Below, in pieces: positions 824 through 35,076 of a stretch of 64,000 nt of DNA. The DNA comes from Alphaproteobacteria bacterium. GTDB taxonomy: Bacteria > Pseudomonadota > Alphaproteobacteria > Rs-D84. The position numbers and the translations under genes were made by a program. The stretch lies in contig JBMNPL010000001.1 of the NCBI GenBank assembly GCA_050943575.1, positions 23,336 through 87,335 on the forward strand. The letters run 5' to 3'. Position 1 is the stretch's first letter. Each line of letters begins with the position of its first letter. The notes below the pieces were generated by a model. That model did no database searches and was not told the DNA's origin. It worked only from the letters and a program-made list of their open reading frames with translations.

Positions 824-2380
824 TTATTCTTCGTCATTAGTTATTCCGAATGCTATTTCACGAGCTTTCATAATAACGCGCTCTGCTAATTTTTCTGACA
901 TATTATCTTCACCCAGAATTTCTACTAATTCATCAGAAGCTAAATCTGCCAAATCTGCCAAAGTATTTATTCCAGCAGCACCTAACTTCATTATAACCGG
1001 ACGTTTAACAAAGTCAAAGTTTAACAAATCATCTTTTATTCCTAATTTACGTCCCTGTTCAAAATAATCATGTTCTAGTTTTTCCAGATAAGCTTTGGCG
1101 CGTGTTTGTAATTCTGATACCAGTTCTGAATTAAAGCCTTCAATGCTTTCTAGTTCTTGTGTTTCAACAAAAGCAATTTCTTCAATTGTTCTAAAACCTT
1201 CGGTTATTAATAAATGTGCTATCATTTCATCAACATCTAAACCGCGTATAAACAATTCTGTTTTTTCTTTAAATTCTTTAGCACGTCGTTCTTGTTCTTC
1301 TGCTTCACTCATAACATCAATATTCCAACCGGTTAATTGTGATGCCAATCTAACATTTTGACCACGACGACCGATGGCTAAACTTTGTTGATCTTCATTT
1401 ACAACTACTGCAGCAGTGTGTTTATCTTCATCGATTATAATTTTTGCAACTTTAGCTGGTTGCATAGCATTTACTATAAATACAGCAGGATCCTCACTAT
1501 AAAGAATAACGTCTATTTTTTCTCCATGACATTCATTAATAACTGGTTGAATTCGTGTTCCTTTCATACCAACAGTCATTCCAACCGCATCAACAGATGG
1601 ATCGTCAGTTTGGACAGCAATTTTTGCGTGTGATCCTGGGGCACGAGCAACAGATTTAATTTTTATAATACCTTCGTAAATTTCAGGAACTTCTTGAACA
1701 AATAATTTTTCCATAAATATAGGATGTGTTCGGGTTAAAAATATTTGAGGACCGCTATTACTGCGGGCAACATCCATAATTAATGCACGAACACGATCAC
1801 CAATATTTAATCGTTCGCCTGGAATTAGTTCAGTTCCGCGTATATACCCTTCGGCTTTACCATTAATATCGACAAAAACATTGCCAAATTCAATACGTTT
1901 AACAACACCACTAATTATATCGCCAATATTATCTTTAAATTCTTCAAATTGACGTCCTTTTTCAGCATCACGAACACGTGCGGTCATAATTTGACGTGCT
2001 GTTTGAAATGCCATACGACCAAATTCTGGTTCAGGTAATGAATCTTCTATTATGTCACCAATTTGCGGATTTTTAGAATATTTACTAGCTTGTTCAACAG
2101 TTAGCATAGTGTTTGGATTATATAAAGATTCTCCAAAATCGTCTGTTCCTACGGTTTCTGGAGATTGAATTACTTCAAATAAACGTCGAACATGTATCGC
2201 ACCGTTTTTACGATCAATGTTTGCGTTTATATTAAATTCTTCACCATATTTTTGTTTTGCTATTTTAGCTATGGCTGATTCTAAAGATTCAAACACGATT
2301 TCGCGTTCAATTTGCTTTTCTTGGGCCAAGTTTTCAATAGCTAGCAATAAATCTTGACGTGGCATGGACACAAACGACAT
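824..2380 (-). CDS. nusA: transcription termination/antitermination factor NusA
   Basis: 518-aa ORF with NusA N-terminal, S1 and KH regions (e.g. ...GDRVRALIMDV...). infB lies directly downstream. Confidence 0.95.
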   Translation of the reverse strand: MSFVSMPRQDLLLAIENLAQEKQIEREIVFESLESAIAKIAKQKYGEEFNINANIDRKNGAIHVRRLFEVIQSPETVGTDDFGESLYNPNTMLTVEQASKYSKNPQIGDIIEDSLPEPEFGRMAFQTARQIMTARVRDAEKGRQFEEFKDNIGDIISGVVKRIEFGNVFVDINGKAEGYIRGTELIPGERLNIGDRVRALIMDVARSNSGPQIFLTRTHPIFMEKLFVQEVPEIYEGIIKIKSVARAPGSHAKIAVQTDDPSVDAVGMTVGMKGTRIQPVINECHGEKIDVILYSEDPAVFIVNAMQPAKVAKIIIDEDKHTAAVVVNEDQQSLAIGRRGQNVRLASQLTGWNIDVMSEAEEQERRAKEFKEKTELFIRGLDVDEMIAHLLITEGFRTIEEIAFVETQELESIEGFNSELVSELQTRAKAYLEKLEHDYFEQGRKLGIKDDLLNFDFVKRPVIMKLGAAGINTLADLADLASDELVEILGEDNMSEKLAERVIMKAREIAFGITNDEE

Positions 2381-2396
2381 TTTTAACTCCTCTTGT

Positions 2397-2432
2397 TAAA
2401 AGAGCGGGGTTTTTTGAACCCCGCTCTTAAAA
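2397..2432. terminator. perfect GC-rich inverted repeat (aagagcggggtt / aaccccgctctt) between argS 3' end and nusA 5' end
   Basis: 12-bp perfect stem with 6-nt loop, flanked by A/T runs on both strands. Probable argS terminator, or attenuator for nusA. Confidence 0.5.
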
Positions 2433-2504
2433 ATTTATTTAAGAACAAGTTAATGTTACACATAAAAATGTATAAAAGCAAGATTTTTTTCAAATTAATT
2501 CTAA

Positions 2505-4202
2505 TTACATTTCAGATGGTATTTTTAATCCCATTAAATCAATAGCTGTGTATAATGTTTGGTAAGCATTTTTAGCTATTTGCAATCTATATTCACGGGT
2601 TTGCTCATTAACATCATCACGTAAAATTGGGCATTCGTGATAAAAAGTATTTATCAATTGGCATAAATCGTAAGTGTAATTTGCAAGAATATTTGTCGCG
2701 CGACAATCAAATGCAAATTGGATAATACGATTAAAGTCCAAAATTTTTAAAATCAAACTACGTTCAATTTCGCTTAGTTTATAATTATATTCAAGTTTAA
2801 TTTTTGTTATTTCGTTTTTATTTTTTCGCAATATACTTTTTAATCTGACAGCGGTATATAAAATATATGGTCCTGTACGACCTTCAAATTGAACAACATC
2901 ATCAGCATCAAAAATATAATCTGATTTTACATCATGTATTAAATCATTAAACTTTAATGCAGCTATTGCTATCATTTCAATAGTTTCTTTTGGTAATTTT
3001 TTACCAGATTCTATAACACGTTTATGTGCAGCATTATTTACAATTTCAATAATATCTAATAACCCAGCAGCATTGCCGTCCCTAGTTTTTAATGGGCCAT
3101 TTTTACCATTAATTGTTCCAAAATATTGATGTTCTAGTTGTTCAGGTTTAAATAATCCGATTTTATGTGCAACGCGAAACACTTGTTGAAAATGTAAAGT
3201 TTGACGCACATCAGTTAGATAAATAACACGATCTGGATTATCGTTTATTTTTCTGTAATATAATGCTGCTAAATCAGTCGCATCATAAGTATCCGCACCG
3301 CGAGAATTATAAAACATAAATGGTGGCATTGGCGCGGTATCGGTATCTTCACGTATTACTACGATTTGGGCACCATCAGATTCTTGTAGTAAATTTTTAT
3401 CACGTAGTAATTTTTCAACAGGTGCTAAATACTTTGATGCATTGGCTTCACCCAATGTATTATCAAATGGCAACATTCCTAAGCGATTGATAACATCATT
3501 CATTGCTTTTAATGATATTGGTATAAATGTGTTATAAAGAGCGGTCCATTTTGAGTCGCCATTTTGAAATTCGGCGGTAATTATTCTGGCGCGATCTAAA
3601 AATTCAGAGTTGTTTTTCGCATATTCTACAGCCATCGGGTAAAAACTATCCAGCTCTTTTGCGGTTATGTTTGTTATGGCATTTTTTTCAATCCATGCCA
3701 TAACTAATCCCATTGGTCGTCCCCAATCACCAATATGATTGTAAGATATTGTTTTATGCCCCAAGAATTTCGCAATACGATTTAAAGTATCACCAACAAT
3801 AGATGTGCGTAAATGTCCAATATGTAAGGTTTTTGCAACATTATATGCGCCATAATCTAAAACAATAGTTTCAGGATTGTTTATTTTAATATCTAATTGT
3901 TGATTTATATAGTTAAAAATAAACTCATCTTTTAATTTTATATTTATAAATCCTGGACCGGCAATATTGATTTCTGAAATAAAATCTAATTTTTTTAGAT
4001 AAGGTAAAATTATTTCCGCAATTTGTCGTGGAGATTTTTTTAATTGCTTAACTAAAATCATTGCGATATTTGTTGAAAAATCACCAAAAGATTTATCTTT
4101 TGGGATTTCTATAATTATGTTTGATAAATCTACTTTTAGTAGTTCTGGTATTGTTATTAATGTAGATTTAATATTATCAGATATAAATTGATAAAGATTC
4201 AT
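2505..4202 (-). CDS. argS: arginine--tRNA ligase
   Basis: 565 aa, class I HIGH motif (LHIGHLRTS), ArgRS-like N- and C-terminal anticodon-binding regions, ends ...SEM. Confidence 0.95.
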   Translation of the reverse strand: MNLYQFISDNIKSTLITIPELLKVDLSNIIIEIPKDKSFGDFSTNIAMILVKQLKKSPRQIAEIILPYLKKLDFISEINIAGPGFINIKLKDEFIFNYINQQLDIKINNPETIVLDYGAYNVAKTLHIGHLRTSIVGDTLNRIAKFLGHKTISYNHIGDWGRPMGLVMAWIEKNAITNITAKELDSFYPMAVEYAKNNSEFLDRARIITAEFQNGDSKWTALYNTFIPISLKAMNDVINRLGMLPFDNTLGEANASKYLAPVEKLLRDKNLLQESDGAQIVVIREDTDTAPMPPFMFYNSRGADTYDATDLAALYYRKINDNPDRVIYLTDVRQTLHFQQVFRVAHKIGLFKPEQLEHQYFGTINGKNGPLKTRDGNAAGLLDIIEIVNNAAHKRVIESGKKLPKETIEMIAIAALKFNDLIHDVKSDYIFDADDVVQFEGRTGPYILYTAVRLKSILRKNKNEITKIKLEYNYKLSEIERSLILKILDFNRIIQFAFDCRATNILANYTYDLCQLINTFYHECPILRDDVNEQTREYRLQIAKNAYQTLYTAIDLMGLKIPSEM

Positions 4203-4220
4203 TTATAAATATTCCATTAT

Positions 4221-4246
4221 TTAAAAAACCGCGCCATGCGCGGTTA
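4221..4246 (-). terminator. rho-independent terminator downstream of rpmG
   Basis: aaccgcg-ccatg-cgcggtt hairpin followed by a T-run on the minus strand. Confidence 0.6.
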
Positions 4247-4248
4247 AT

Positions 4249-4431
4249 TTACGATGGCATTTTTGTTTCTGTAAATATAACATGTTTACGAAGTTTTGGA
4301 TCGTATTTACGCATTTTTAATTTGCCTTGGGTATTTTCAGATTTTGTATTTTTTGTTTTTGTATAAAAATATCCAGTTTCTGGATTATTCATTTTTATAA
4401 CAATCTTTGACCCTTTTTTCTTATTTGCCAT
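4249..4431 (-). CDS. rpmG: 50S ribosomal protein L33
   Basis: 60 aa; ...TGYFYTKTKN...KLKMRKYDPKLRKHVIFTE matches the bL33 pattern. Confidence 0.9.
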   Translation of the reverse strand: MANKKKGSKIVIKMNNPETGYFYTKTKNTKSENTQGKLKMRKYDPKLRKHVIFTETKMPS

Positions 4432-4589
4432 TTTAATAACCTTTTATTTTTAGTGATTTTATTTTAAGACATGATTTATTGAAAATCAATCAAAATTTTA
4501 ATTAGTTTATTAATATGGTAAATTAAGTAATTATTAGTTGTTTTTATAAAACTATATAGTTACAATTTATCAACCAAAAAGGTTTATAT

Positions 4590-6176
4590 ATGATAAAAAA
4601 TATTTACGAAATGTTATACAAAGCATGCACAGAAAATAGCGCACGCATATTTTTTGTTCGTCAAGGTGAAACATATAAAGATTTATTAACAGCGGTAAAA
4701 AAACGTGCAGTTTTATTGGCAAAAAAGTTTAATATTAAAAAAGGTGATGTGGTTGCAATTTTATCTGGAAATACTCCAGATTTTATAAAATCTTATTTTG
4801 CAATTGTTTCTCAGGGAGCGAAAGCACTTATGTTGGATACAGGGTTATCATCATCAGAGCATCTGAATATGATGAAATATACAGATTGTAAATTGGCATT
4901 AGCTCAAAAAGCGTATTTTATAGATGGTGGGCCACAAATGTTTGATATTGAGACATTAGATTCTGCAGATGAAAATGATTTTATTGCGACAGATGTGCAT
5001 CTAAATGATTTAGCTATGTTATCATTTACCAGTGGTTCAACTGGGAATCCAAAAGTTGTTGGATTAACACATAGTAATATTGTGTCATTAGGTGAAGGTT
5101 CAAAATTTTATAACCCTGTAATTCATCCTGGGTATATGTTTTATGGTTTTTTACCTTTATATCATATTTATGGTGTGGTTATAAATATCATTTCTCCTAT
5201 ATCTTTAGGGTGTTCGCTATTATTACAACCTGTTTTGAACCCGAAAGAATTTATTAAAGATTTTCAAAAATATAAACCAGAAGTTATTCCTGCGGTACCA
5301 CGCGTATGGGAAGGGTTTTATAAAAAAATTATAGACGGATTAAAACAAAAGCGAGTTTATTGGTTAGTGCGTACTGTTGTTGGGTTACGTAGTTTTTTTA
5401 ACTTTATTGGTTTAGGGGCACTAGTCAAAAAAGTTACACAACCAATTCATAATATTTTTGGCGGACGAGTTAAAGTTTTGGTTTCAGCTGGTGCAACATT
5501 AAAGCCAAGAGTTCGAGAGTTTTTTGAAAAATTAGGTTTTGTAGTCGGTGATTGTTATGGTTTAACAGAAACTACAGGTCCTGCATATTTTAATTTTCAA
5601 TTTAAATTACCAAATGGCAAAACTTATTATGCTGGACCATTACCAGATAATGAAATAAAAATTCATAATCCGGATAAAGAAGGTGTTGGTGAAGTTTGGG
5701 TTCGTGGTAGTTTAGTTATGCCATGTTATATCGGGAACAATGAGGCTAATGTTGAATCTTTTGAAGATGGTTGGTTTAAAACGGGAGATCTAGGAAAATT
5801 TGATAATAAAAAGCGTTTGATAATAAAAGGGCGTAAAAAGCAAGTTATAGTTTTGGAAAATGGTAAAAATATTTATCCTGATGAATTAGAAGATTTATAT
5901 CTACAAAATGACGAAATATTGGCAGCCGCAATTTTAGAACGAGTAATAAATGGCAAAATTGTTGCATATGGTGTGTTTCAAGTAAAATCTGGTACAAGTG
6001 TTTCAAAGGTTTCGTTATTATTAAAAGCATCAAATTTGATGATTGCACCATATAAATGGGTTACACATTTTGCAATAACCGAAGAAGAACTACCAATGAC
6101 CAGCGCAAAGAAAATAAAGCATCATGAAATATCAGCTATGTTGGATAGAGGTGAATTTAAAAACTTGTCGGATTGA
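4590..6176 (+). CDS. AMP-dependent synthetase/ligase (long-chain acyl-CoA synthetase-like)
   Basis: 528 aa with AMP-binding motifs FTSGSTGNPKVV and CYGLTETTGP. Confidence 0.85.
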   Translation: MIKNIYEMLYKACTENSARIFFVRQGETYKDLLTAVKKRAVLLAKKFNIKKGDVVAILSGNTPDFIKSYFAIVSQGAKALMLDTGLSSSEHLNMMKYTDCKLALAQKAYFIDGGPQMFDIETLDSADENDFIATDVHLNDLAMLSFTSGSTGNPKVVGLTHSNIVSLGEGSKFYNPVIHPGYMFYGFLPLYHIYGVVINIISPISLGCSLLLQPVLNPKEFIKDFQKYKPEVIPAVPRVWEGFYKKIIDGLKQKRVYWLVRTVVGLRSFFNFIGLGALVKKVTQPIHNIFGGRVKVLVSAGATLKPRVREFFEKLGFVVGDCYGLTETTGPAYFNFQFKLPNGKTYYAGPLPDNEIKIHNPDKEGVGEVWVRGSLVMPCYIGNNEANVESFEDGWFKTGDLGKFDNKKRLIIKGRKKQVIVLENGKNIYPDELEDLYLQNDEILAAAILERVINGKIVAYGVFQVKSGTSVSKVSLLLKASNLMIAPYKWVTHFAITEEELPMTSAKKIKHHEISAMLDRGEFKNLSD

Positions 6177-6187
6177 TTAAGTTAATA

Positions 6188-6218
6188 AAAAAGACGATAT
6201 TTAAATATCGTCTTTTTG
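6188..6218 (+). terminator. rho-independent terminator of the acyl-CoA ligase gene
   Basis: aaagacgatat-ttaa-atatcgtcttt hairpin followed by a T-run. Confidence 0.7.
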
Positions 6219-6233
6219 ATGTTTTTTTTTAAT

Positions 6234-6776
6234 TTATCTTGTTTCGTATACCATATCTATATCTTTTATTTTTGATTCATTTGTCCATGCACTATTAGAA
6301 TCTGATATCCGCATTCCTGATGATAATTGTTCAGCTTCTTTCATATCCATATCTCTTATTCGCATTCCTGATGACAAATTTTCTTGCGGTGCCATATCTA
6401 TATCTTCTAAGCGTCCTGTGTTTTGTATACAGCAACTTCTTTGCAAATTGATAATTTGTCGTTGTAAATCAATAATTTGTTGTTGTAAATCAGTTATTTG
6501 TTGTTGAACACCATCATCTGTTCTATTTAACTGAGTTCTTAATGCTGATTGTTCTTTTTGTATTAATCTTAAATCATCTTTTAATCCTAAATCATCATGC
6601 CTTAATTTTGCAATTTCTTTCGTTTGTGGTTTTGCATCAATATTAGAATATATGATTTTACCTGCTTCTTTAGCATTAGAATCAAAGTTTTTATTCATTT
6701 TCATTACTGGCATACTTGCAGTTGCGACACCACAAATAGACATTATTAATGCGAATATTGATAGTTTTTTTAACAT
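6234..6776 (-). CDS. secreted coiled-coil protein, paralog 1 of a tandem triplicated family
   Basis: 180 aa. N-terminal signal peptide MLKKLSIFALIMSICGVATASMP is conserved with the two neighbouring genes. Coiled-coil heptads (DLQQQIIDLQRQIINLQ). Internal repeat LSSGMRI[RS]D near the C-terminus. RBS aaggaaag upstream. Confidence 0.7.
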   Translation of the reverse strand: MLKKLSIFALIMSICGVATASMPVMKMNKNFDSNAKEAGKIIYSNIDAKPQTKEIAKLRHDDLGLKDDLRLIQKEQSALRTQLNRTDDGVQQQITDLQQQIIDLQRQIINLQRSCCIQNTGRLEDIDMAPQENLSSGMRIRDMDMKEAEQLSSGMRISDSNSAWTNESKIKDIDMVYETR

Positions 6777-6813
6777 TGTTTTCTTTCCTTTGTTTATATA
6801 AGTTCAGTTATTA

Positions 6814-6842
6814 ATTTTATCATAATTAAATGGCGATTCCAA
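6814..6842 (-). promoter_or_regulatory. sigma70-like promoter of paralog 1 (-35 TTGGAA, 17-nt spacer, -10 TAAAAT)
   Basis: Same box sequences and spacing are conserved upstream of all three paralogs. Confidence 0.4.
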
Positions 6843-6865
6843 GAATATAAATTAATTTATTAAAC

Positions 6866-6893
6866 AAAAACACCTCATTTGAGGTGTTTTTTA
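6866..6893 (-). terminator. hairpin terminator downstream of paralog 2
   Basis: aaacacctca-ttt-gaggtgttt followed by a T-run (read on the minus strand). Confidence 0.5.
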
Positions 6894-6912
6894 TAAACAT
6901 ATTTGATTATTT

Positions 6913-7245
6913 TTATTTATGATATTCATTAACTTGTTGTTGCAAATCAATTAATTGTTGTTGTACACCATTTATCATGGCTCTTAATTCGTCATTTGTT
7001 TCTTTTATTTTAGCAATTTGAGCTTCTAAATCAGAAGTTCTTTTGTCTATTGATGATATATCGCTTTCTATTCTAGAAAGATCAAGATTATTAGTTTTAT
7101 CCTTTTTATTAGGGGTTTTGTTAACAATTTCAGTTTTTTTAAGATCTGGTGATTTCATTTTTATTGTTGTTGTTGTTGGCATACCTGCTGTTGCAATGCC
7201 GCAAACAGACATTATTAATGCAAACATTGATATTTTTTTTAACAT
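6913..7245 (-). CDS. secreted coiled-coil protein, paralog 2
   Basis: 110 aa. Signal peptide MLKKISMFALIMSVCGIATAGMP. Coiled coil VQQQLIDLQQQVNEY. RBS aggagaaacc. Confidence 0.7.
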   Translation of the reverse strand: MLKKISMFALIMSVCGIATAGMPTTTTIKMKSPDLKKTEIVNKTPNKKDKTNNLDLSRIESDISSIDKRTSDLEAQIAKIKETNDELRAMINGVQQQLIDLQQQVNEYHK

Positions 7246-7272
7246 GGTTTCTCCTCTTTTGTTCAGTTGTTA

Positions 7273-7301
7273 ATTTTATCATAATTAAGCTGTAATTCCA
7301 A
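7273..7301 (-). promoter_or_regulatory. sigma70-like promoter of paralog 2 (-35 TTGGAA / -10 TAAAAT, 17-nt spacer)
   Basis: Conserved boxes. The -35 box sits in the loop of an AT-rich inverted repeat spanning 7278-7313. Confidence 0.4.
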
Positions 7302-7320
7302 ATTAATTATGATAAATGTT

Positions 7321-7638
7321 TTATTTTCCCCCGCCATCAAGTTTATCTACTCTCTCTTTTAAATTATTAACTGTTACACTTAAATCATTTATTTGTTTTT
7401 CTAAACTGTTTATTTTTGAAAAATCTATTTTGGATATTTTTCTTTTTATAGTCTCTATTTCTTGTCTTATATCTTTAGTACATTTTTCGCATTCATCTTT
7501 ATTAATAACTGTTGATTGGTTTGCTCCAGCAACTTTAGGTTCTTTGAGATTAAAATCTGTTTTCATTACTGGCATACCTGCTGTTGCAATACCGCAAACG
7601 GACATTATTAGTGCAAATATTGATAATTTTTTTAACAT
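7321..7638 (-). CDS. secreted coiled-coil protein, paralog 3
   Basis: Start set at the internal MLKKLSIFALIMSVCGIATAGMP (ATG at 7638, preceded by RBS gagggagaaa), not the longer ORF start at 7677. Coiled coil LEKQINDLSVTVNNLKERVDKL. Confidence 0.7.
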   Translation of the reverse strand: MLKKLSIFALIMSVCGIATAGMPVMKTDFNLKEPKVAGANQSTVINKDECEKCTKDIRQEIETIKRKISKIDFSKINSLEKQINDLSVTVNNLKERVDKLDGGGK

Positions 7639-7667
7639 AAGTTTCTCCCTCTTTTGTTCAGTTGTTA

Positions 7668-7696
7668 ATTTTATCATAGTTAAGAGATAATTCCAA
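7668..7696 (-). promoter_or_regulatory. sigma70-like promoter of paralog 3 (-35 TTGGAA / -10 TAAAAT)
   Basis: Same conserved elements and spacing as the other two paralogs. Confidence 0.4.
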
Positions 7697-7760
7697 GAAT
7701 TTATTAAATAAAAAACACCCTATTTTAGAGTGTTATATATTTTTTAATACTGAAATATAT

Positions 7761-7836
7761 TGGTGGATGATGAGGGACTCGAACCCCCGACCCTCTCGGT
7801 GTAAACGAGATGCTCTACCAGCTGAGCTAATCATCC
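7761..7836 (-). tRNA. tRNA-Val (anticodon TAC)
   Basis: Minus-strand cloverleaf: GGATGAT acceptor, TAGCTCAGCTGGTAGAGCA D-arm, anticodon loop TTTACAC, GGTTCGAGTCC T-arm, encoded CCA. Close match to canonical bacterial tRNA-Val(UAC). Confidence 0.9.
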
Positions 7837-7845
7837 ATATTTAAG

Positions 7846-8145
7846 TTATTCTGGCAATGGCATACCAGCCGTCGCACTAGACATAACTTTATCAATTAAA
7901 TCATCCGCCTTGGATTTCGCATCGTTAAATGCTGCAGAAATTAAAGCAGTTATTGTTTCAATATCTTCTTTTATCAAATCTGGGCTCAAAGTCAACTTAA
8001 TTAAATCGTATTTGCCACTCATTTCAACAATTGCTAACCCATTACCTGCTATACCCTTGACACTAGATTTCTCTAATTGATTTTGGGCATCTGAAACTTT
8101 GCTTTGTAATTGTTTAGCTTGCTCCATCAATGCTTTCATATCCAT
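7846..8145 (-). CDS. ybaB: YbaB/EbfC family nucleoid-associated protein
   Basis: 99 aa; ...GNGLAIVEMSGKYDLIKLTLSPDLI...DIETITALISAAFNDA...GMPLP matches the YbaB pattern. Start codon overlaps the pnp stop (TAATG). Confidence 0.85.
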   Translation of the reverse strand: MDMKALMEQAKQLQSKVSDAQNQLEKSSVKGIAGNGLAIVEMSGKYDLIKLTLSPDLIKEDIETITALISAAFNDAKSKADDLIDKVMSSATAGMPLPE

Positions 8146-10298
8146 TATTTTTTCTCCTCGGTACCTGTGTTTTGATTTATTCCTTTCATAGAAAGACGAG
8201 TTTTGCCACGTTTATCCATACCCATATATTTTACAAATACTTTATCACCCTCTTTTATTTTAGCTTCTTCAATTGTATTCAAACGTTTGCCAGTTATTTC
8301 AGAAATATGAACTAATGATTCAAAATTTCCGTTCATAATTTTAACAAATAAACCAAAATCCTTTAATCCAGATACAATACCTTCATAAATTTGTCCAACT
8401 TCTGGTTCAGCAATAATTTCTTTAATTTTTGCCATAGCAAGTTCAGCATCAGCTTTATCAGTTGCCATAATTTTTATTGTACCATCGTCAGCCAAATCAA
8501 TATTTGTATTAGTTTCTTTGGTTAATGACTGAATAACACTTCCCCCTTTACCAATCACATCGCGAATTTTATCAGGATTTATTTTCATTGTAAAGGCTTG
8601 TGGTGCATGTTCAGATAAACTCTTACGCGGTGTTTTAATCGCTTTGTTCATAATACCTAAAATATGCATACGACCATCTTTGGCTTGTGCTAATGCTTGC
8701 TTCATTATTTCAAATGTAATAGATGTAATTTTAATATCCATTTGTAAAGCTGTGATACCTTTATCAGTACCAGTTACTTTGAAATCCATATCTCCCAAAT
8801 GATCTTCATCGCCCATAATATCAGTTAAAACTTCAAATTCATCACCTTCTTTAATTAATCCCATAGCAATACCTGCAACTGGTCTGGTAATCGGAACACC
8901 GCCATCCATTAAAGCTAATGTAGTTCCACAAACAGTTGCCATAGATGAACTGCCATTTGATTCTAAAATATCGGATACTACGCGAATTGTATAATCGAAC
9001 TTTTCTTTGGATGGTAACATAGGATTAATAGCACGCCATGCTAATTTTCCATGCCCCAATTCACGACGTTTTGGTGCACCAATGCGTCCGATTTCACCAA
9101 CAGAAAAAGGCGGAAAATTATAATCCAAAATAAACCGTTCATCAAATGTTCCGTCTAAAGATTCGTCTGGGCGCGCATCCTTGTCATTACCCAATGTTAA
9201 TGTAACCAAAGCCTGAGTTTCACCACGTGTAAATAATGCAGATCCATGTGTGCGTGGTAAAACACCAACTTCGACTTCAATCGGACGAACTGTTTTAGAA
9301 TCACGACCATCAATACGTGGTTTTTTATCTAAAATATTACGACGCATAATACGAGCAGTAATCGCATCAATGATTTCACCAGCCCATGCCAATTGTAATT
9401 CAGTCGCATCAATAATTGATGCACGTGCATTAGTTTTAATCGCGTCCATTGCAGCATATCTTTCTAGTTTTGAAGATATTTTTAGTGTCTCGGTAATTTG
9501 ATCAGCAAATCTTTCAAGATCAGATTCTAAAGATTTATATTCATCAGAGCGTTCTGAAATTGTCCATGCTGTATTACCAACTTTTTCTTTTAATTCATTA
9601 ATCGCTGTAATAACAGGTTGAAATGCATCGAAACCGAATTTAACCGCATCTAACATTTCATCTTCAGTTAATTCTTGTGCTTCGGATTCTACCATTAATA
9701 CACCATCTTTTGTTCCAGCAACAACAAGTTCTAATTTAGAATCAGTTATTTCTTGTTTAGTTGGATTTAACAAATATTTACCATTTGCATAACCAACGCG
9801 TGCCGCACCAATTGGGCCCATAAACGGAATACCAGAAATAGATAATGCGGCAGATGCTGCAATCATAGCCAAAATATCAGGTTGATTTTTCTTATCATAT
9901 GATAAACAAGTAACTACAATTTGTGTATCATTTGTAAATGTTTCTGGGAACAGCGGGCGAATCGGGCGATCAATTAAACGTGAAATTAAAGTTTCGTTTA
10001 ATGAAGATTTTCCTTCACGGCGATCACGACTACCCGGTATACGACCAGCTGATGCAAACTTTTCTTGATAATCTACGGTTAATGGGAAAAAATCTTGACC
10101 TTCTTTAGCTTCGCGAGAAGATACAACAGTTGCTAGAACCATTGTTTCACCCATTGTAGCCATAATACTACCCGTTGCTTGTTTGGCAAAACGACCAGTT
10201 TCTAAAATTAATTTTTCACCACCAAATTCAAGTTCTTTACGAATCGGATTATTCAAGGCATTTTTGGGTGCCTTGCCCCCAAGTAAACCAAATAACAT
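8145..10298 (-). CDS. pnp: polyribonucleotide nucleotidyltransferase (PNPase)
   Basis: 717 aa with two RNase PH domains, a KH domain and C-terminal S1 domain (GDKVFVKYMGMDKRGKTRLSMK). The N-terminus appears 15-20 aa longer than typical PNPase, so the true start may be an internal TTG. Confidence 0.95.
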   Translation of the reverse strand: MLFGLLGGKAPKNALNNPIRKELEFGGEKLILETGRFAKQATGSIMATMGETMVLATVVSSREAKEGQDFFPLTVDYQEKFASAGRIPGSRDRREGKSSLNETLISRLIDRPIRPLFPETFTNDTQIVVTCLSYDKKNQPDILAMIAASAALSISGIPFMGPIGAARVGYANGKYLLNPTKQEITDSKLELVVAGTKDGVLMVESEAQELTEDEMLDAVKFGFDAFQPVITAINELKEKVGNTAWTISERSDEYKSLESDLERFADQITETLKISSKLERYAAMDAIKTNARASIIDATELQLAWAGEIIDAITARIMRRNILDKKPRIDGRDSKTVRPIEVEVGVLPRTHGSALFTRGETQALVTLTLGNDKDARPDESLDGTFDERFILDYNFPPFSVGEIGRIGAPKRRELGHGKLAWRAINPMLPSKEKFDYTIRVVSDILESNGSSSMATVCGTTLALMDGGVPITRPVAGIAMGLIKEGDEFEVLTDIMGDEDHLGDMDFKVTGTDKGITALQMDIKITSITFEIMKQALAQAKDGRMHILGIMNKAIKTPRKSLSEHAPQAFTMKINPDKIRDVIGKGGSVIQSLTKETNTNIDLADDGTIKIMATDKADAELAMAKIKEIIAEPEVGQIYEGIVSGLKDFGLFVKIMNGNFESLVHISEITGKRLNTIEEAKIKEGDKVFVKYMGMDKRGKTRLSMKGINQNTGTEEKK

Positions 10299-11624: not shown

Positions 11625-14128
11625 TCGCCAAATAACGATAGTTGCGCTGGTTTTTTATCTTTATCACGAGATATAAATACATCAGAAGGTTTTTCTATAC
11701 CAAGTTCCCCTTGAAGATTTTCACGAATATATTGTTGACCTATGTTGTTTTCCAATTTTTTTAAAATCATTTTTGCTCTGGATATAACCTGATCTGGCAT
11801 TCCAGCCATTTGAGCAACATGAATTCCATAAGAACGATCTGCGAATCCAGATGCAATTTTATGCAAAAAGATGATTTCGCCATCATGCTCTGCAATTTGA
11901 ACGTTTAAGTTTTTTAATTCATTTAATGGTATTTTTGTTAGTTCATGATAATGTGTTGCGAACAATGTTCTTGGTTTTAATTCGTTTAAAAATTCTAGTA
12001 CAGCTTGTGCGATAGCCATACCATCCCAAGTCGCAGTTCCGCGTCCTATTTCATCAAAGATAATAAAGCTTTTGTTTGTTGCACGATTTAAAATATTGGC
12101 AGTTTCTTGCATTTCTACCATGAAAGTTGATTGCCCTGCAGCCAAATTATCAGATGCCCCGACACGCGAAAATAATTGATCACAAATACCGATAGTTGCA
12201 GATTCTGCAGGTACAAAAGAACCCATATGTGCCAAGATTGTTATTAACGCATTTTGACGTAAATAAGTAGATTTTCCAGCCATATTGGGTCCAGTTAATA
12301 AAGCTATTTTTTTATCATTTAAATTACAATTATTTTTAATAAACTGATTGCCTGATTTATTTAATATACTTTCTATTACTGGATGACGTCCGGCAATTAT
12401 TTCAAAATCATTACCATTAGTCATTGTTGGGCGAACCCAATCATATTCATATGCAACTTTTGTTAATGCTAGCCATACATCTGTTTCAGCTATTAAATCT
12501 GAAATTTGTAATAATTCGTCAGAAATTTCACGAATTTTTTCAATTAATTGTGCAATTATTTCAGCTTCTATGGCTGCTGCTTTATCAGCGGCACCACGAA
12601 CTTCATTATCCAAATCAATCAGATGTGCTGTGGTAAATCGCATATTGTTTACCATAGTTTGTCGATGAATAAATCCAGATTCTGGACGCATTAATACATC
12701 TGCACGAGTATTCGGAACTTCTATATGATATCCTAATATATTGTTAAATTTTATTTTTAGAGCATTAATACCAGTTTTTTTAATATATTCTGCTTGTAAT
12801 AATGCGATTGTTTTTTTAGCGCCATGCGCCATTTGTCGCATATTATCAAGTACATCGTCAAATCCATCGTTAATAATTTCACCATCACGGAAAAAAGCCG
12901 GCATATTATCTGATAAAGCTTTATCAAGTTCTAAAGCAAACGAGTTAAAAGTTTTAATTTCTTTAAATTTAGCACTTAAAATTAAATCTAATTTTTCACC
13001 AATAGATTTTATAGTTGGTAAAATGTTTAAAAAATCAGATACTATATGTAAATCCCGAGGTGTTCCGCGCCCACTAATAAGTCGTGTTATCGCGCGCCCT
13101 ACATCAGGTAATTTTGATAACTCATCGCTCATAGATTTAAAAATTTGTGTGTTGGATAACAAGTAAGTAATATGTTCTTGTCTACGGTTAATTTCTCTAA
13201 TATCTCCAGATAGTTGTCGTAAAAATATACGTAATTTTCTTGCCCCTGCCGCTGTATGTGTTTTATCTAAAATATCCAATAAACAAGTACCGCCCTCATT
13301 CAATACAGAATCAATTTCTAAACTTTTCCAAGATGCTAAATCAATTAATAATTGTTTTTCAACACCAAACCGATAAGGTGTACGAAATATAATATTCGTA
13401 TCACGCTGAGTGTTGTTTAAATAAGCTGCTAACAATTTATCTGATAAAGTTGGAGTGTTAAAAATTGGTAAAATTTTATTTGTAATTGCATCAATATCAG
13501 TTCTAGAATATAATTTTTCATAAACAGGTGTAGTTGTAAAATGTTCACGTAAACGTACAATTTCCAATGTTTCAGCTAATTTTTCGGGATAAATAATTTC
13601 TGCCGGAGCAATTTTTGAAATATCATCAAAAAGATTTATAGTTTCACCGATAAAAAATTCACCAGTTGAAATATCACATCCAGAAAAACAATAACCAGAT
13701 GTTTTAGATTGTGCAACAGCTACCAAAAAATTTGATTTTTTGGGGTTTAATAAATTATCGTCAGTTAATGTTCCAGCAGTCATAACGCGAACAACTTTGC
13801 GTTCAATTTGTTTATGTCCACGAGCTTTTGCTTCTTCTGGGGTTTCCATTTGTTCGGCTAATGCGACACTAATACCAGATTTTACTAGACGTGCAAAATA
13901 GTTATCAGCTGCATGCCATGGAATACCACACATTGGAATGTCATTACCACGTTCATCTTTGCCGCGACGAGTTAAAACTAAATCTAAAGTTTTGCTAATA
14001 ATTCTCGCATCATTAAAAAAGGCTTCATAAAAATCCCCTAGACGAAATAATAAAACAGCGTCTGGATTTTCGGCTTTCATATCCAAATATTGTTTCATTA
14101 CAGGGGTAAGAGTTAATTTTTTAACCAT
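11621..14128 (-). CDS. mutS: DNA mismatch repair protein MutS
   Basis: 835 aa; N-terminal mismatch-binding region (GDFYEAFFNDA) and Walker A motif TGPNMAGKSTYLRQ. Confidence 0.95.
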   Translation of the reverse strand: MVKKLTLTPVMKQYLDMKAENPDAVLLFRLGDFYEAFFNDARIISKTLDLVLTRRGKDERGNDIPMCGIPWHAADNYFARLVKSGISVALAEQMETPEEAKARGHKQIERKVVRVMTAGTLTDDNLLNPKKSNFLVAVAQSKTSGYCFSGCDISTGEFFIGETINLFDDISKIAPAEIIYPEKLAETLEIVRLREHFTTTPVYEKLYSRTDIDAITNKILPIFNTPTLSDKLLAAYLNNTQRDTNIIFRTPYRFGVEKQLLIDLASWKSLEIDSVLNEGGTCLLDILDKTHTAAGARKLRIFLRQLSGDIREINRRQEHITYLLSNTQIFKSMSDELSKLPDVGRAITRLISGRGTPRDLHIVSDFLNILPTIKSIGEKLDLILSAKFKEIKTFNSFALELDKALSDNMPAFFRDGEIINDGFDDVLDNMRQMAHGAKKTIALLQAEYIKKTGINALKIKFNNILGYHIEVPNTRADVLMRPESGFIHRQTMVNNMRFTTAHLIDLDNEVRGAADKAAAIEAEIIAQLIEKIREISDELLQISDLIAETDVWLALTKVAYEYDWVRPTMTNGNDFEIIAGRHPVIESILNKSGNQFIKNNCNLNDKKIALLTGPNMAGKSTYLRQNALITILAHMGSFVPAESATIGICDQLFSRVGASDNLAAGQSTFMVEMQETANILNRATNKSFIIFDEIGRGTATWDGMAIAQAVLEFLNELKPRTLFATHYHELTKIPLNELKNLNVQIAEHDGEIIFLHKIASGFADRSYGIHVAQMAGMPDQVISRAKMILKKLENNIGQQYIRENLQGELGIEKPSDVFISRDKDKKPAQLSLFGE

Positions 14129-14201
14129 TGTATCGTAAAATTTAAACTTAAAAAAACATAAAGTAAAGTTTCTTTATAAAAATTATATTTATATTTTAAG
14201 T

Positions 14202-14390
14202 TTAAATTTTTAATTTCTCTATTTTTAATTCCGCATCTTTTAGTAATTTTTCACAATATAACTTAAGCTTCATTCCCTTTTCATAAGCTTGTACGGAATC
14301 TGCTAGTGGTAGTTCCCCAGTTTCCATTTTTTTTACTAATTCGGTTAATTGTTTATATGCATCTTCAAAAGATAATTTGTTTTCTTCCAT
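14202..14390 (-). CDS. xseB: exodeoxyribonuclease VII small subunit
   Basis: 62 aa; LSFEDAYKQLTELVKKMETGELPLADSVQAYEKGMKL matches the XseB pattern. Confidence 0.75.
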   Translation of the reverse strand: MEENKLSFEDAYKQLTELVKKMETGELPLADSVQAYEKGMKLKLYCEKLLKDAELKIEKLKI

Positions 14391-14477
14391 AATAAACCCT
14401 CTTTTGAAAAAAGATTACTATTTAAACTCTAAATTTTCAACTTTTAACTTAAAATAACATTAGAGTTGCTTTATTTA

Positions 14478-15539
<1,062 letters not shown>

Positions 15540-15625
15540 TCAAAATAAATCGTTAATACATTTCTCTCGCAATAATAAAGCAGAATTTGCAAAATGCAAT
15601 TATTATCTTATAATAAATAATCATT

Positions 15626-15982
15626 ATGAGACAAACAATAAAAAAATATAAAGATTTTATTATTCAAGAAAATAATTCTGTGGTTAAAACACCGCTTTTT
15701 ATTATTCGTTCGCGCCCAACATTATGGGATGGAAATGCAAAATATGGTTTAGTTACTACAAAAAAAACATTTCGTCTTGCTTGTGAAAGAAATCGTGCCA
15801 AACGTTTATTACGGGTATGGATTCGTGCTTGCGAATCATTGATGAATCCTGATATGGATTATATATTTATTGCGCGTACTTCAATTTTAAACACAACTTT
15901 ATCTATCGGAATTGAAACGATGAAAAAAGCTTTACAACAATTGTCAAATAATGATGAAAAAAATCGCCCTGCTCTTAATTAA
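15626..15982 (+). CDS. rnpA: ribonuclease P protein component
   Basis: 118 aa, basic; ...[13 protein letters not shown]... RnpA motif. No rpmH upstream; rpmH is at 45.3 kb. Confidence 0.85.
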
Positions 15983-16169
15983 ATTTTATCAAAATGGAAT
16001 TTCACCATTGTTTGGTGGTCGCGCTGTTTGTCGTTTTTATCCGTCTTGTAGCGAGTATACAAAACAAGCAATTGAAAAATATGGTGCATTTCGTGGAACA
16101 TGGTTGGGATTAAAAAGAATTTTACGATGTCGACCCGGTAGTAGTTTTGGATATGATCCCGTTCCTTGA
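15951..16169 (+). CDS. yidD: membrane protein insertion efficiency factor YidD
   Basis: 72 aa with [10 protein letters not shown]...RILRCRP...GYDPVP signature. Overlaps the rnpA 3' end. Confidence 0.85.
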
Positions 16170-16223
16170 CATCTGTTTCAGATTTGCTACAATATTTTTT
16201 GCATTATAATAAAGGATATTGTT

Positions 16224-16682
16224 ATGTCATTTCGTTCAACAGTAAAAGCCATGACCAAAATTATGGATGAAATGGGGCTTACTGAACTTGATTTAGAACG
16301 CCAATTTTTATTTGGCATTTATCGTAAGCACGTTCACCTTTCGCGTCAAGGTGCAACTACCCCTCCAGCATTTACAGCTGTGCCCACTCCTGCCGCTCCA
16401 TTGGCAAAAACATCTGGTGATACAATTTCAAATTCTGATGAATGTTTAGCAAATGCTATTCGTTCACCAATGGTTGGTGTTGTTTATTTAGCACCAGAAC
16501 CAGGAGCAAAGCAATTTGCGACAATCGGGCAGAAAATAAAATCTGGTGATACAATATGTTTGATCGAAGCTATGAAAACATTTAATCCGGTTAAAGCCGA
16601 TAAAGATGGTGTTGTAAAAAAAATTTTAGTTTCCGATAGTCAGGCGGTTGAGTTTGATACTCCATTAATGGTGATAGAATAA
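16224..16682 (+). CDS. accB: acetyl-CoA carboxylase biotin carboxyl carrier protein
   Basis: 152 aa with biotinyl-lysine motif IEAMKTFN and Ala/Pro linker. Confidence 0.9.
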   Translation: MSFRSTVKAMTKIMDEMGLTELDLERQFLFGIYRKHVHLSRQGATTPPAFTAVPTPAAPLAKTSGDTISNSDECLANAIRSPMVGVVYLAPEPGAKQFATIGQKIKSGDTICLIEAMKTFNPVKADKDGVVKKILVSDSQAVEFDTPLMVIE

Positions 16683-16683
16683 A

Positions 16684-18036
16684 ATGGCAGCTATAAAGAA
16701 GATTCTGATAGCTAATCGTGGGGAAATAGCCCTGCGGATTATTCGTGCATGTCGGGATATGGGTATAAAAACAGTTGCTGTTTATTCTTCTATAGATAAA
16801 ATGGCTTCTCATGTTCATGTTGCGGATGAATCTGTTTGTATAGGTCCTGGTCCAGCAAAAGATTCTTATCTTAATGAATCTGCCATTTTAACAGCAGCAT
16901 TACTTACCAATTCTGATGCGATTCATCCTGGATATGGATTTTTATCTGAACGCGCTGGGTTTGTCGAAAAAGTAGAATTGCATAATTTGATTTGGATTGG
17001 TCCTAATGCTAATATGATTGCAAAAATGGGTGATAAAGTTGCCGCTAAAAAAACAGCTATAGAATGTGGATTGCCCGTGGTTCCTGGTAGTGATGGTGCT
17101 GTAGATACACTGGAATCTGCTTTGATGTGGGGTGAAAAAATTGGGTATCCAGTTATGTTAAAAGCATCAGCTGGTGGTGGTGGAAAAGGTATGCGTTCGG
17201 TTATGAATGCATCTGAAATGGCAAAACTATTTCAATTAACCAAACAAGAGGCCAAGGCTGCTTTTGGTGATGATACTTTATATATGGAAAAATTATTATT
17301 GCATCCGAGGCATATTGAATTTCAAGTTTTAGCTGATAAACATGGTGGAGTTGTAATTTTTGGGGAACGTGATTGTTCTCTTCAACGTAAAAATCAAAAA
17401 GTTATGGAAGAATGCCCCGCAGCTGCATTAACCACAAAACAACGTGATGATATGATTGAAATCTGTCGCGCTGCGGTTAAAAAAATGGGATATACAAATG
17501 CAGGTACCTTGGAATTTATGTTTGAAAATGGTAAATTTTATTTTCTAGAAATGAACACTAGATTACAAGTAGAACATCCTGTTACAGAAATGGTTTATGG
17601 TGTGGATCTTGTTCGTGAACAGATCCGTATCGCCCAAGGGGAAAAACTTGGTTATAATCAAGGTAATTTAATTCAAAATGGGCATGCAATTGAATTTCGT
17701 ATCAATGCAGAAGATCCGGAAACATTTGTTCCAAATCCCGGAACAATCACAACATATAATCCTTCTGGTGGATTAGGTATAAGGATTGATTCAGCGGTTT
17801 ATAATGGGTATATAATTCCGCCAACTTATGATTCTTTGATAGCAAAATTAATTGTTTGGGCACCGAATCGTCCGGCTTGTTTATTACGTGCACAAAGGGC
17901 ATTGGATGAATTTATAATAGAGGGTGTAAAAACAACAATTCCGCTACATCAAAAGTTATTACAAGCAAAAGATGTAAAATCTTTAAATATTGATAATCAT
18001 TGGTTAGAAAAATTTTTAGCTAATACAAATAAATAA
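16684..18036 (+). CDS. accC: acetyl-CoA carboxylase biotin carboxylase subunit
   Basis: 450 aa ATP-grasp biotin carboxylase (KASAGGGGKGMR; EMNTRLQVEHPVTE). Confidence 0.95.
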   Translation: MAAIKKILIANRGEIALRIIRACRDMGIKTVAVYSSIDKMASHVHVADESVCIGPGPAKDSYLNESAILTAALLTNSDAIHPGYGFLSERAGFVEKVELHNLIWIGPNANMIAKMGDKVAAKKTAIECGLPVVPGSDGAVDTLESALMWGEKIGYPVMLKASAGGGGKGMRSVMNASEMAKLFQLTKQEAKAAFGDDTLYMEKLLLHPRHIEFQVLADKHGGVVIFGERDCSLQRKNQKVMEECPAAALTTKQRDDMIEICRAAVKKMGYTNAGTLEFMFENGKFYFLEMNTRLQVEHPVTEMVYGVDLVREQIRIAQGEKLGYNQGNLIQNGHAIEFRINAEDPETFVPNPGTITTYNPSGGLGIRIDSAVYNGYIIPPTYDSLIAKLIVWAPNRPACLLRAQRALDEFIIEGVKTTIPLHQKLLQAKDVKSLNIDNHWLEKFLANTNK

Positions 18037-23017: not shown

Positions 23018-23839
23018 ATGAGAAAAATACTTTTGTTTTTAATTTTATTTTTAGCACCTTATACATTAAATGCCGCTAGTGTTATTGCAACTATAAATGG
23101 AACCCCAATAACAGATGCGGATATAGATGCCAGGGTAAAATTAATGAACGCCCAAGGACATAGTTATATCGATAATCGTAGACGCGCACTAAATAACATT
23201 ATAGATGATAACGTAAAAATAAAACATGCTGAAAACTTTAAAATTATCCCGACAGATAGTGAGGTAAACAAACAGTTAAAACAAATGGGCTTATCTGGTT
23301 TATCTGAAACTGATCGAGAAATGGCAAGATTTGCTATACGTGCAGATATGGCATGGCAAATGATTATTGCACGTACAATAATCCCAACTATTGTTATATC
23401 CAAAGAAGAAATAGCAAATGAAGTGGCAGAAATTGAACGTGTTAAGGGGTTGCCATTAGAAATAACCTTCATTCGATTGTTAAACGTGCCAGAATCGGTT
23501 GCAAAAGTTTTAACTTCACCAAAAAATTGTGAAGATGCGATTCGTATGGCTGAAAATTTAGGTGGTTCCCCACAAAAATTAGTGTTGCCACAGTATGAAC
23601 TTTCAAGCGATATTCGCTCCCAAATGGCTGGTTTAGATCTTTTAAGATGGTCCGAAAAAAAAGACAATTCAATTATTTTAATTTGTAGCAAAAAGAAAAT
23701 GAAAGAATATGCCCAATTAGATGAAGTTTTAGAGCGTAATGCTATATGGAAAAAAGCCATGTTTCAAGGCGATCAACAATTAAAACAACTACGTAGAAAG
23801 GCGGTAGTTGTTATTATGGACAATAGGTATAAAATTTAA
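23018..23839 (+). CDS. SurA N-terminal domain-like periplasmic chaperone
   Basis: 273 aa with signal peptide. Position downstream of lptD and SurA-like N-terminal region. No clear parvulin PPIase domain. Confidence 0.5.
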   Translation: MRKILLFLILFLAPYTLNAASVIATINGTPITDADIDARVKLMNAQGHSYIDNRRRALNNIIDDNVKIKHAENFKIIPTDSEVNKQLKQMGLSGLSETDREMARFAIRADMAWQMIIARTIIPTIVISKEEIANEVAEIERVKGLPLEITFIRLLNVPESVAKVLTSPKNCEDAIRMAENLGGSPQKLVLPQYELSSDIRSQMAGLDLLRWSEKKDNSIILICSKKKMKEYAQLDEVLERNAIWKKAMFQGDQQLKQLRRKAVVVIMDNRYKI

Positions 23840-35045: not shown

Positions 35046-35076
35046 TAAAAATCCCACAATAGTGGGATTTTTATTA
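35046..35076. terminator. bidirectional terminator between the Yip1-like gene (+) and the porin gene (-)
   Basis: aaaaatcccac-aatag-tgggattttt hairpin. Confidence 0.7.

Follow-up and report, generated by a model that had tools for sequence, protein, structure and literature searches.

A tandem array of predicted exported coiled-coil proteins with variable mature regions beside tRNA-Val in an uncultured alphaproteobacterium

We examined a tandem array of three small minus-strand genes that lies next to a tRNA-Val gene in a 64,000-nucleotide (nt) stretch of an uncultured alphaproteobacterial genome (assembly GCA_050943575.1, contig JBMNPL010000001.1, positions 23,336 to 87,335); this whole stretch is called the window, and coordinates refer to it unless stated otherwise. 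Judged from their sequences, the three units are a previously undescribed coiled-coil protein family, found only in this lineage. The best explanation, which we hold with slightly better than even confidence, is that a vertically inherited, lineage-restricted gene for a small exported coiled-coil envelope protein was amplified in place into three transcription units. The evidence comes from the anatomy of the genes, from variation between strains, from predicted structure, and from single-copy relatives at the same chromosomal site.

Results

Three transcription units share a 5′ module

The three genes are annotated as hypothetical proteins in an NCBI record whose source is given as "MAG: Alphaproteobacteria bacterium" (MAG, metagenome-assembled genome). 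Each coding sequence (CDS) is an open reading frame (ORF) with its own leader and promoter block:

6234–6776, minus strand: unit 1 CDS, 180 amino acids (aa), ACOX7D_00130
6717–6776, minus strand: unit 1 leader, residues 1–20
6234–6416, minus strand: strain-specific C-terminal tail of unit 1, holding the duplicated LSSGMRI[RS]D, from segment identity against the contigs L003, L006, and L007 (see below)
6802–6842, minus strand: unit 1 promoter block, hexamers at 6814–6842 (consensus scan)
6913–7245, minus strand: unit 2 CDS, 110 aa, ending EYHK, ACOX7D_00135
7186–7245, minus strand: unit 2 leader, residues 1–20
7261–7301, minus strand: unit 2 promoter block, hexamers at 7273–7301 (consensus scan)
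7321–7638, minus strand: unit 3 CDS, 105 aa, ending GGGK, ACOX7D_00140
7579–7638, minus strand: unit 3 leader, residues 1–20
7656–7696, minus strand: unit 3 promoter block, hexamers at 7668–7696, followed by the conserved AACTGAAC

Unit 3 could also be read as a 118-aa ORF from an ATG at 7677. As that ATG falls within the −10 box, and the 105-aa start aligns with the starts of units 1 and 2 and has a Shine-Dalgarno sequence in front, the 105-aa reading was used.

The leader opens with M-L-K-K and continues as a hydrophobic stretch of 16 residues whose last three are A-T-A; G or S and then M-P come next. The opening 38 nt of coding sequence, which are leader DNA, occur exactly three times, with no occurrence expected by chance. 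The same holds upstream for a 41-nt block, TTGGAAT-N6-TTAA-N-TATGATAAAATTAA-N-AACTGAAC, found exactly three times against 0 expected from 100 shuffles. In a consensus scan, all three predicted promoters had a −35 box TTGGAA, a 17-nt spacer, and a −10 box TAAAAT, each with a TG extended −10. In all three units the 5′UTR is short and contains a Shine-Dalgarno sequence. Promoter, untranslated region (UTR), and leader are together 80–84% identical between paralogs.

A preliminary description of this DNA had reported three minus-strand genes of 180, 110, and 105 aa with near-identical leaders, shared −35/17-nt/−10 boxes at 6814–6842, 7273–7301, and 7668–7696, three complete transcription units, a tRNA-Val gene beside them, and an internal LSSGMRI[RS]D repeat in the first paralog. 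The ORFs, the threefold leader DNA, and the box coordinates bear this out, with the TG extended −10 as an addition. At the sequence level, each unit does have its own promoter, UTR, and leader; ARAGORN and Rfam place tRNA-Val(TAC) at 7761–7836; and a repeat search recovered the LSSGMRI copies at 6300–6332 and 6351–6383, with 82% nucleotide identity. Two statements were too strong. The ribosome-binding-site contexts, described as identical, are similar and show differences, and the unit 1 5′UTR has a 10-nt insertion relative to units 2 and 3. The mature regions, said to have diverged almost completely, have indeed diverged strongly, but all three align to one common architecture, and a GVQQQ[IL]xDLQQQ block occurs in both unit 1 and unit 2 (87% identity over 46 nt, repeat search).

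Mature regions vary between closely related strains

The locus is also present on six further contigs from biogas and anaerobic-digester metagenomes. Segment by segment, the window compares with one of these, L003 (MAG GCA_012799735.1), as follows:

Right flank (2375–6220): 99.92% identity
Three promoters and UTRs: 100%
Leaders: 98.5–100%
Mature unit 3: 99.2%
Mature unit 2: 95.8%, with in-frame indels
Unit 1 up to CCIQNT: 99.7%
Last 183 nt of unit 1: 49.6%, the random level

The unit 1 tail is likewise at the random level (49.6% nucleotide identity) against L006 and L007. Where the window has the LSSGMRI tail, L003, L006, L007, and L016 have a DDQPLGIAVNKLPQASQGMQ... tail, and the two have in common only a faint PQ..S.GM motif; neither the window nor the fetched loci contained a donor copy of the tail. 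Other exchanges are larger or lie elsewhere in the gene: in L004, the unit 1 leader is identical and the whole mature domain is different, and in L016 the unit 2 linker is replaced. Six mature alleles of unit 2 (90–105 aa) show 51–90% protein identity, or 53–90% against the window allele, with 4–25 gap columns. The gene for the neighboring AMP-binding (acyl-CoA) ligase is 99.56–99.94% identical between strains at the nucleotide level, and the unit 3 promoter block is 100% identical in L003, L004, and L005. The hypervariability first proposed from paralogs therefore extends to strains whose flanking gene is 99.6–99.9% identical.

All indels in good-quality contigs are in frame, which indicates that the genes are maintained. 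The abrupt identity boundaries point to recombination with divergent alleles. In L006, the gene corresponding to unit 1 combines a unit-1 upstream region with unit-3-like leader codons, and that corresponding to unit 2 has a unit-1-like spacer; 5′ modules mixed in this way are a sign of gene conversion between paralogs. Against L003, we also observed that the 3′ end of the PNPase gene together with YbaB (8579–7846) is 97.3–97.5% identical and the other flank (6220–2375) 99.92%, a contrast that indicates a strain-level recombination breakpoint at or in the array.

The mature regions are predicted to form coiled coils

AlphaFold2 was run on monomers. In the unit 2 model, residues 21–55 form a disordered linker and residues 56–109 a single helix, with a predicted local distance difference test (pLDDT) score >90 over the helix. 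The unit 1 model has a helix at residues 53–120 that ends in a CC pair, followed by a 60-residue C-terminal tail of low confidence that is probably disordered. The mature proteins are thus modeled as a Lys/Thr/Asn-rich disordered linker of ~30–35 residues and one amphipathic helix of 54–68 residues. A heptad scan gave a continuous register, with position a mostly Ile and position d mostly Leu. These helices and their register agree with the earlier proposal that the mature parts are coiled coils. Profile matches in the PDB were weak (E = 1e-4 to 1e-2), covered the helix only, and were mostly to parallel trimeric stalks. Under the Harbury rules, Ile at a with Leu at d would alone favor dimers.

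Many members have cysteine pairs where the helix ends: CEKC in unit 3, where the motif precedes a coiled-coil helix and the protein ends GGGK; CC in unit 1; SCSC/SCGC in L011 and P0145, two relatives described below; and KC/KCC in L010. In a predicted exported protein, such pairs suggest interchain disulfide staples.

Searches return a single lineage

No model in Pfam, NCBIfam, PHROGs, or PADLOC matched above threshold. DUF3450, Fib_alpha, IcmG/DotF, JetC, LmuB, and spanin matches were rejected as sub-threshold coiled-coil noise, the only kind of match these libraries gave. A word-indexed profile search of 5.8 billion proteins returned ten clusters, all of one lineage. An exhaustive HMMER scan of 1.84 billion representatives returned family members, a distant fragment (P0145, on contig L009), and long repetitive coiled-coil proteins. 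P0145 was kept as a true distant member, and the remaining non-family matches, which were long proteins with multiple coiled-coil stretches, were rejected as compositional. The family accordingly remains uncharacterized, as the preliminary description had supposed, with no above-threshold library model and with homologs confined to the lineage in the profile scans.

Other candidates were also set aside. The automatic JGI/IMG names "RNase H-like nuclease," "EnvC," and "CwlO-like" were rejected as coiled-coil artifacts. A scan of GTDB species-representative genomes for the leader matched only an unrelated Bacteroides lipoprotein (L002) that starts MLKKLSIFA. A protein-pattern scan of JGI metagenomes found nothing, the single match of a promoter DNA scan in the same metagenomes, on phage-like contig L008, was attributed to chance, and a viral-contig scan was negative.

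Single-copy relatives occupy the same site in sister species

The window is ordinary core chromosome, encoding NusA, ArgRS, PNPase, TruB, MutS, MreB, AccC, LptF, LptD, RlmN, MetRS, Der, ValRS, and GyrA. GyrA and the AMP-binding ligase place the organism among uncultured low-GC MAGs labeled "Alphaproteobacteria" or "Rickettsiales," and the host is an uncultured low-GC alphaproteobacterium of biogas reactors. The sister species L010, with a ligase 86% identical, keeps the gene order ArgRS, L33, ligase, X, tRNA-Val, YbaB, PNPase, where X is a single 198-aa gene. Its product has a related leader (MLKKISMVALLVSVCATASA/A, the stroke marking the predicted cleavage site) and a coiled coil that contains internal repeats, and it ends in Lys. 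A second sister species, L011 (ligase 85% identical), has a 121-aa member beside the ligase, and P0145 resembles the L010 and L011 members in type. L006, a strain ~88–90% identical to the window, has two units, running from tRNA-Val to a unit-2-like gene and then to a unit-1-like gene. tRNA-Val itself holds an equal position in L003, L006, L010, and L012. The single ortholog of the sister species at the tRNA-Val/ligase site and the two-unit strain together indicate that the array arose by duplication in place.

The promoter has a similar history. Its core, CTTAATT(A/G)TGATA(A/G)AATTA, is kept in the single-copy genes of the sister species. Shortly after the −10 box, a CTG(A/G)AAC motif (6802–6809, 7261–7268, and 7656–7663) is likewise shared with the L010 and L011 5′UTRs and may mark the transcription start region or a regulatory site. 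Since the −10 core and CTG(A/G)AAC are both kept in single-copy sister genes, the promoter is ancestral and constrained and not a mere by-product of recent duplication.

Codons 2–4 of every unit form an A7 or A8 tract (TTA AAA AAA; 7229–7242, 6760–6773, and 7622–7635). The L011 tract (2395–2410) is A7 where L009 and L010 have A8, which puts the canonical ATG out of frame, and in L011 only an upstream ATG, one overlapping the Shine-Dalgarno sequence, still opens the ORF. Slipped-strand phase variation could account for this, as could an assembly error in the homopolymer.

The conserved leader predicts delivery to the periplasm

In every member, including L010, L011, and P0145 (ASA/A, ASA/F, and ASA/V), residue 21 is preceded by A-[TS]-A at positions −3 to −1. 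From established signal-peptide rules, we infer Sec export and cleavage by signal peptidase I after residue 20. This matches the signal peptide and signal peptidase site named in the preliminary description; at the sequence level, paralogs and sister-species genes alike retain the A-[TS]-A site. The ratio of nonsynonymous to synonymous substitution rates (dN/dS; Nei-Gojobori) between paralog leaders is 0.09–0.22. A lipobox, searched as [LVI][ASTVI][GAS]-C (a regular expression modeled on PROSITE PS51257), was absent from 9/9 members tested, because the residue before an invariant Cys15 is V or I. LptF, LptD, and MreB are encoded in the window; with LptD and LptF the host is diderm, and so the Sec leader implies predicted delivery to the periplasm only. 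The effector, adhesin, and immunity-like functions named in the preliminary description stay candidate roles.

We also noted that the 3′ end of YbaB (7858–7879) encodes ...SSATAGMPLPE and, over 22 nt, shares 82% identity with the leaders around their ATAGMP cleavage site. An identical YbaB C-terminus in L010 shows this sequence to be native to YbaB; the resemblance may be chance or a relic of the origin of that part of the leader.

Discussion

Probable amplification, in place, of a vertically inherited gene

Under the explanation that we favor, an ancestral single gene would have given two and then three units as the repeated 5′ modules recombined unequally. The 5′ cassette would be kept uniform by gene conversion and by selection for expression and export, and the mature part would diversify by recombination with divergent alleles and by heptad-scale indels, probably driven by outside pressure from phage, grazers, or a host. 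After Sec export and removal of the leader, the helices would form parallel coiled-coil oligomers, which disulfide bonds may lock in the oxidizing periplasm, giving rods of ~8–10 nm in or on the cell envelope.

Four points weigh against this account. First, the family is missing at the syntenic site in L012 and L015 and is therefore not essential across the clade; at the array site, L012 carries an EamA transporter and L015 an OmpA-domain protein, and L013 and L014 show no synteny there. Second, the invariant leader Cys15 leaves a small chance of non-canonical lipidation. Third, dN/dS (Nei-Gojobori) in mature unit 2 is ~1.5 against L003 and 0.95 against L006, and in unit 1 it is 0.5, but these mature values of 0.5–1.5 rest on 10–30 substitutions, few enough that relaxed constraint and diversifying selection are indistinguishable and that dN/dS alone is no proof of positive selection. 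Fourth, several of the compared contigs are of low coverage with frameshift errors (L007 and L016) or carry a palindromic artifact (L006).

The contig artifacts were handled as follows. The frameshifted variants P0133, P0279, P0010, and P0275, encoded on contigs of 0.3–1.7x coverage whose housekeeping genes are broken (L007 and L016), were rejected as evidence of phase variation. The L006 contig (ENA ERZ27250894 k141_1994382) is a perfect palindrome in which the two units recur inverted around ~1283, an assembly artifact that truncates the unit-1-like gene (P0009), and one half of it was used. As for the slot in L015 (ligase 79% identical), its occupant at 5622–6041 is a 139-aa OmpA-domain (peptidoglycan-binding) protein, convergent with the ligase, in place of a coiled-coil unit; its position may be a coincidence, or the slot may have gone to a different small envelope protein.

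Alternative explanations

The locus might instead encode a surface-exposed array of variable coat or decoy antigens that evades phage, grazers, or a host through copy-number change and allele swapping, which we consider unlikely but worth weighing. A conserved 5′ module joined to a mature part that is hypervariable at the strain level, and a copy number of 1, 2, or 3 in different genomes, would both fit. The Borrelia erp/UHB families are a functional parallel to such an array. For the favored reading too, the closest known logic is that of the Mycoplasma vpma genes of M. agalactiae, vsp of M. bovis, and vlp of M. hyorhinis, clustered paralogs in which the 5′UTR and signal-peptide region are highly conserved and the mature regions, often with repeats, show little or no homology (PMC2268961); the array likewise has a conserved 5′UTR and leader with divergent mature parts, some of them not alignable. 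The likeness ends there. Vpma, Vsp, and Vlp are lipoproteins of wall-less bacteria, whereas the array proteins have no lipobox, belong to a diderm host, and have no sequence homology to them. Vpma and Vsp use Xer1-type site-specific inversion around a single promoter, whereas the array consists of co-oriented direct repeats, each unit with its own promoter, and has no recombinase nearby. Finally, the models contain only a linker and a helix, with no predicted beta-barrel or outer-membrane anchor, and no route across the outer membrane was found.

We regard as distinctly improbable a further reading, in which the proteins are an analog of Braun's lipoprotein (Lpp, PF04728) in an alphaproteobacterial lineage, a class without Lpp. 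Lpp is confined to a subclade of Gammaproteobacteria (10.1101/2021.05.31.446380). Both kinds of protein are small, exported, and probably highly expressed, with one long heptad helix; the single helix of 54–68 residues is near the length of mature Lpp, and the promoter and ribosome-binding site look strong. A pairwise BLASTP alignment with E. coli Lpp also showed a weak local resemblance (33% over 30 aa, 10/30 identical; E = 0.001). Most members end in Lys (units 2 and 3, P0008, L010, and L011), as do five of six different C-termini (EYHK, GGGK, LQKK, TMQK, and QSHK). However, 15 of 48 long ORFs in the window (31%) end in Lys and family members are not independent observations, and we downgraded the C-terminal Lys as evidence of Lpp-like attachment in view of this background. 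Both unit 1 tails end in Arg, and one bears the 60-residue disordered tail. No member tested has a lipobox, the Pfam search gave no LPP match (the Pfam matches listed were all below the gathering score), and Lpp was not among the top 60 PDB profile matches. Unlike Lpp, the array proteins have a 30–35-residue disordered N-terminal linker, are hypervariable, and belong to another bacterial class; strain hypervariability and absence from relatives are also unlike a housekeeping tether.

A specific form of this idea, that an Lpp-like envelope strut evolved independently in this alphaproteobacterial lineage, whose genomes are apparently small, seems to us about equally improbable. It would have the rods tied to peptidoglycan through the C-terminal Lys at one end and to the outer membrane at the other, either by the flexible basic linker or by non-canonical lipidation of Cys15. 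If it were true, heptad-scale indels between strains would tune the width of the periplasm, and the family would add to the ways of organizing outer membrane and cell wall without Lpp.

Least probable of all, and to our minds very doubtful, is the reading preferred in the preliminary description, a horizontally acquired tRNA-Val island of secreted effectors or toxins: the array does adjoin tRNA-Val, the family has a very narrow taxonomic range, and locus content differs among more distant relatives, but the corresponding site in L010 carries an ortholog whose promoter core and leader are the same, the neighbors are PNPase, YbaB, tRNA-Val, and the AMP-binding ligase with no integrase beside the array, a repeat search of 5800–8200 gave no repeat involving the tRNA gene (that is, no att-like copy), array GC (28.7%, against 29–37% in surrounding windows) is ordinary, and the viral-contig, PHROGs, and PADLOC searches gave nothing beyond coiled-coil noise. 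The claim of acquired DNA at a tRNA hotspot therefore finds no support here.

Comparison with other coiled-coil proteins

The stalks of trimeric autotransporter adhesins, reovirus sigma-1, and GCN4-pII fusions have an Ile/Leu heptad core in common with the array proteins. The stalk matches reflect heptad composition and not homology, and the array proteins have neither a head nor a membrane-anchor domain. Phage i-spanins (Rz-like) resemble the array proteins in that a hydrophobic segment at the N-terminus is followed by a coiled coil in the periplasm, and in having Cys residues. The PHROG spanin matches (E = 0.006) were not significant, and no matched stretch passes alone. Unlike i-spanin genes, the array has no holin, endolysin, o-spanin, or phage genes in its flanks and lies in a housekeeping context, and its products have a conserved AXA cleavage site.

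Clustered variable exported proteins are a familiar phenomenon, but the coiled-coil family itself is undescribed. Of all that uncultured bacterial genomes encode, lineage-specific small exported proteins are understood least, and population data here identify a locus that recombines and diversifies much faster than its surroundings. In cultured organisms, such a pattern usually marks an interface with phages, predators, or hosts. In the array, a conserved cassette for expression and export is coupled to a mature domain that can be exchanged, a clean natural case that occurs in a diderm and lacks the Mycoplasma recombinase machinery. The array could also serve as a strain-typing marker for the clade in biogas reactors.

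Other features of the locus and the window

Further features in and around the array were as follows:

7761–7836, minus strand: tRNA-Val(TAC), directly upstream of the array (ARAGORN; Rfam tRNA model, 69.9 bits)
7714–7734, minus strand: intrinsic terminator after tRNA-Val (terminator scan; RNA fold −11.1 kcal/mol)
7275–7316, no strand assigned: perfect 14-bp inverted repeat TTTATCATAATTAA / TTAATTATGATAAA (repeat search; RNA fold −14.4 kcal/mol, z = −6.8)
6866–6891, minus strand: intrinsic terminator after unit 2 (RNA fold −15.3 kcal/mol, z = −5.1), followed by a U-tract
6188–6217, no strand assigned: bidirectional intrinsic terminator serving unit 1 and the convergent AMP-binding (acyl-CoA ligase) gene (−13.3 kcal/mol, z = −6.0)

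The 3′ half of the tRNA-Val terminator and the TTTAATAAATT that follows it belong to the repeated unit and are shared with the terminator upstream of unit 1. Unit 3 lacks a canonical terminator. The 14-bp inverted repeat lies just past the unit 3 stop codon, encloses the unit 2 −35 box, and overlaps the unit 2 −10 box, with no U-tract. It is an inverted copy of the unit 2 −10 region placed just upstream of the unit 2 −35 box, and it is 100% conserved in L003, L004, L005, and L007. This palindrome could terminate or stabilize unit 3, act as an operator, or be a promoter for divergent antisense transcription.

Five long ORFs in the window (23018–23839, 35074–36081, 43131–44477, 56348–57691, and 60249–61709; 273–486 aa) had no NCBIfam match at E ≤ 1e-5 and are further uncharacterized proteins of the lineage. 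The clade includes a species common in human gut (Hadza) metagenomes, with longest contigs of 0.85–0.95 Mb, and L014 encodes a 514-aa ankyrin-repeat protein beside the ligase. Such observations hint at small genomes and perhaps at a eukaryotic partner. Across 14000–16700, GC skew changes from negative to positive, with a cumulative minimum near 16 kb and a switch in gene orientation from minus to plus at ~15.6 kb, and this could be a replication origin. A second change of skew and orientation lies near 50–56 kb.

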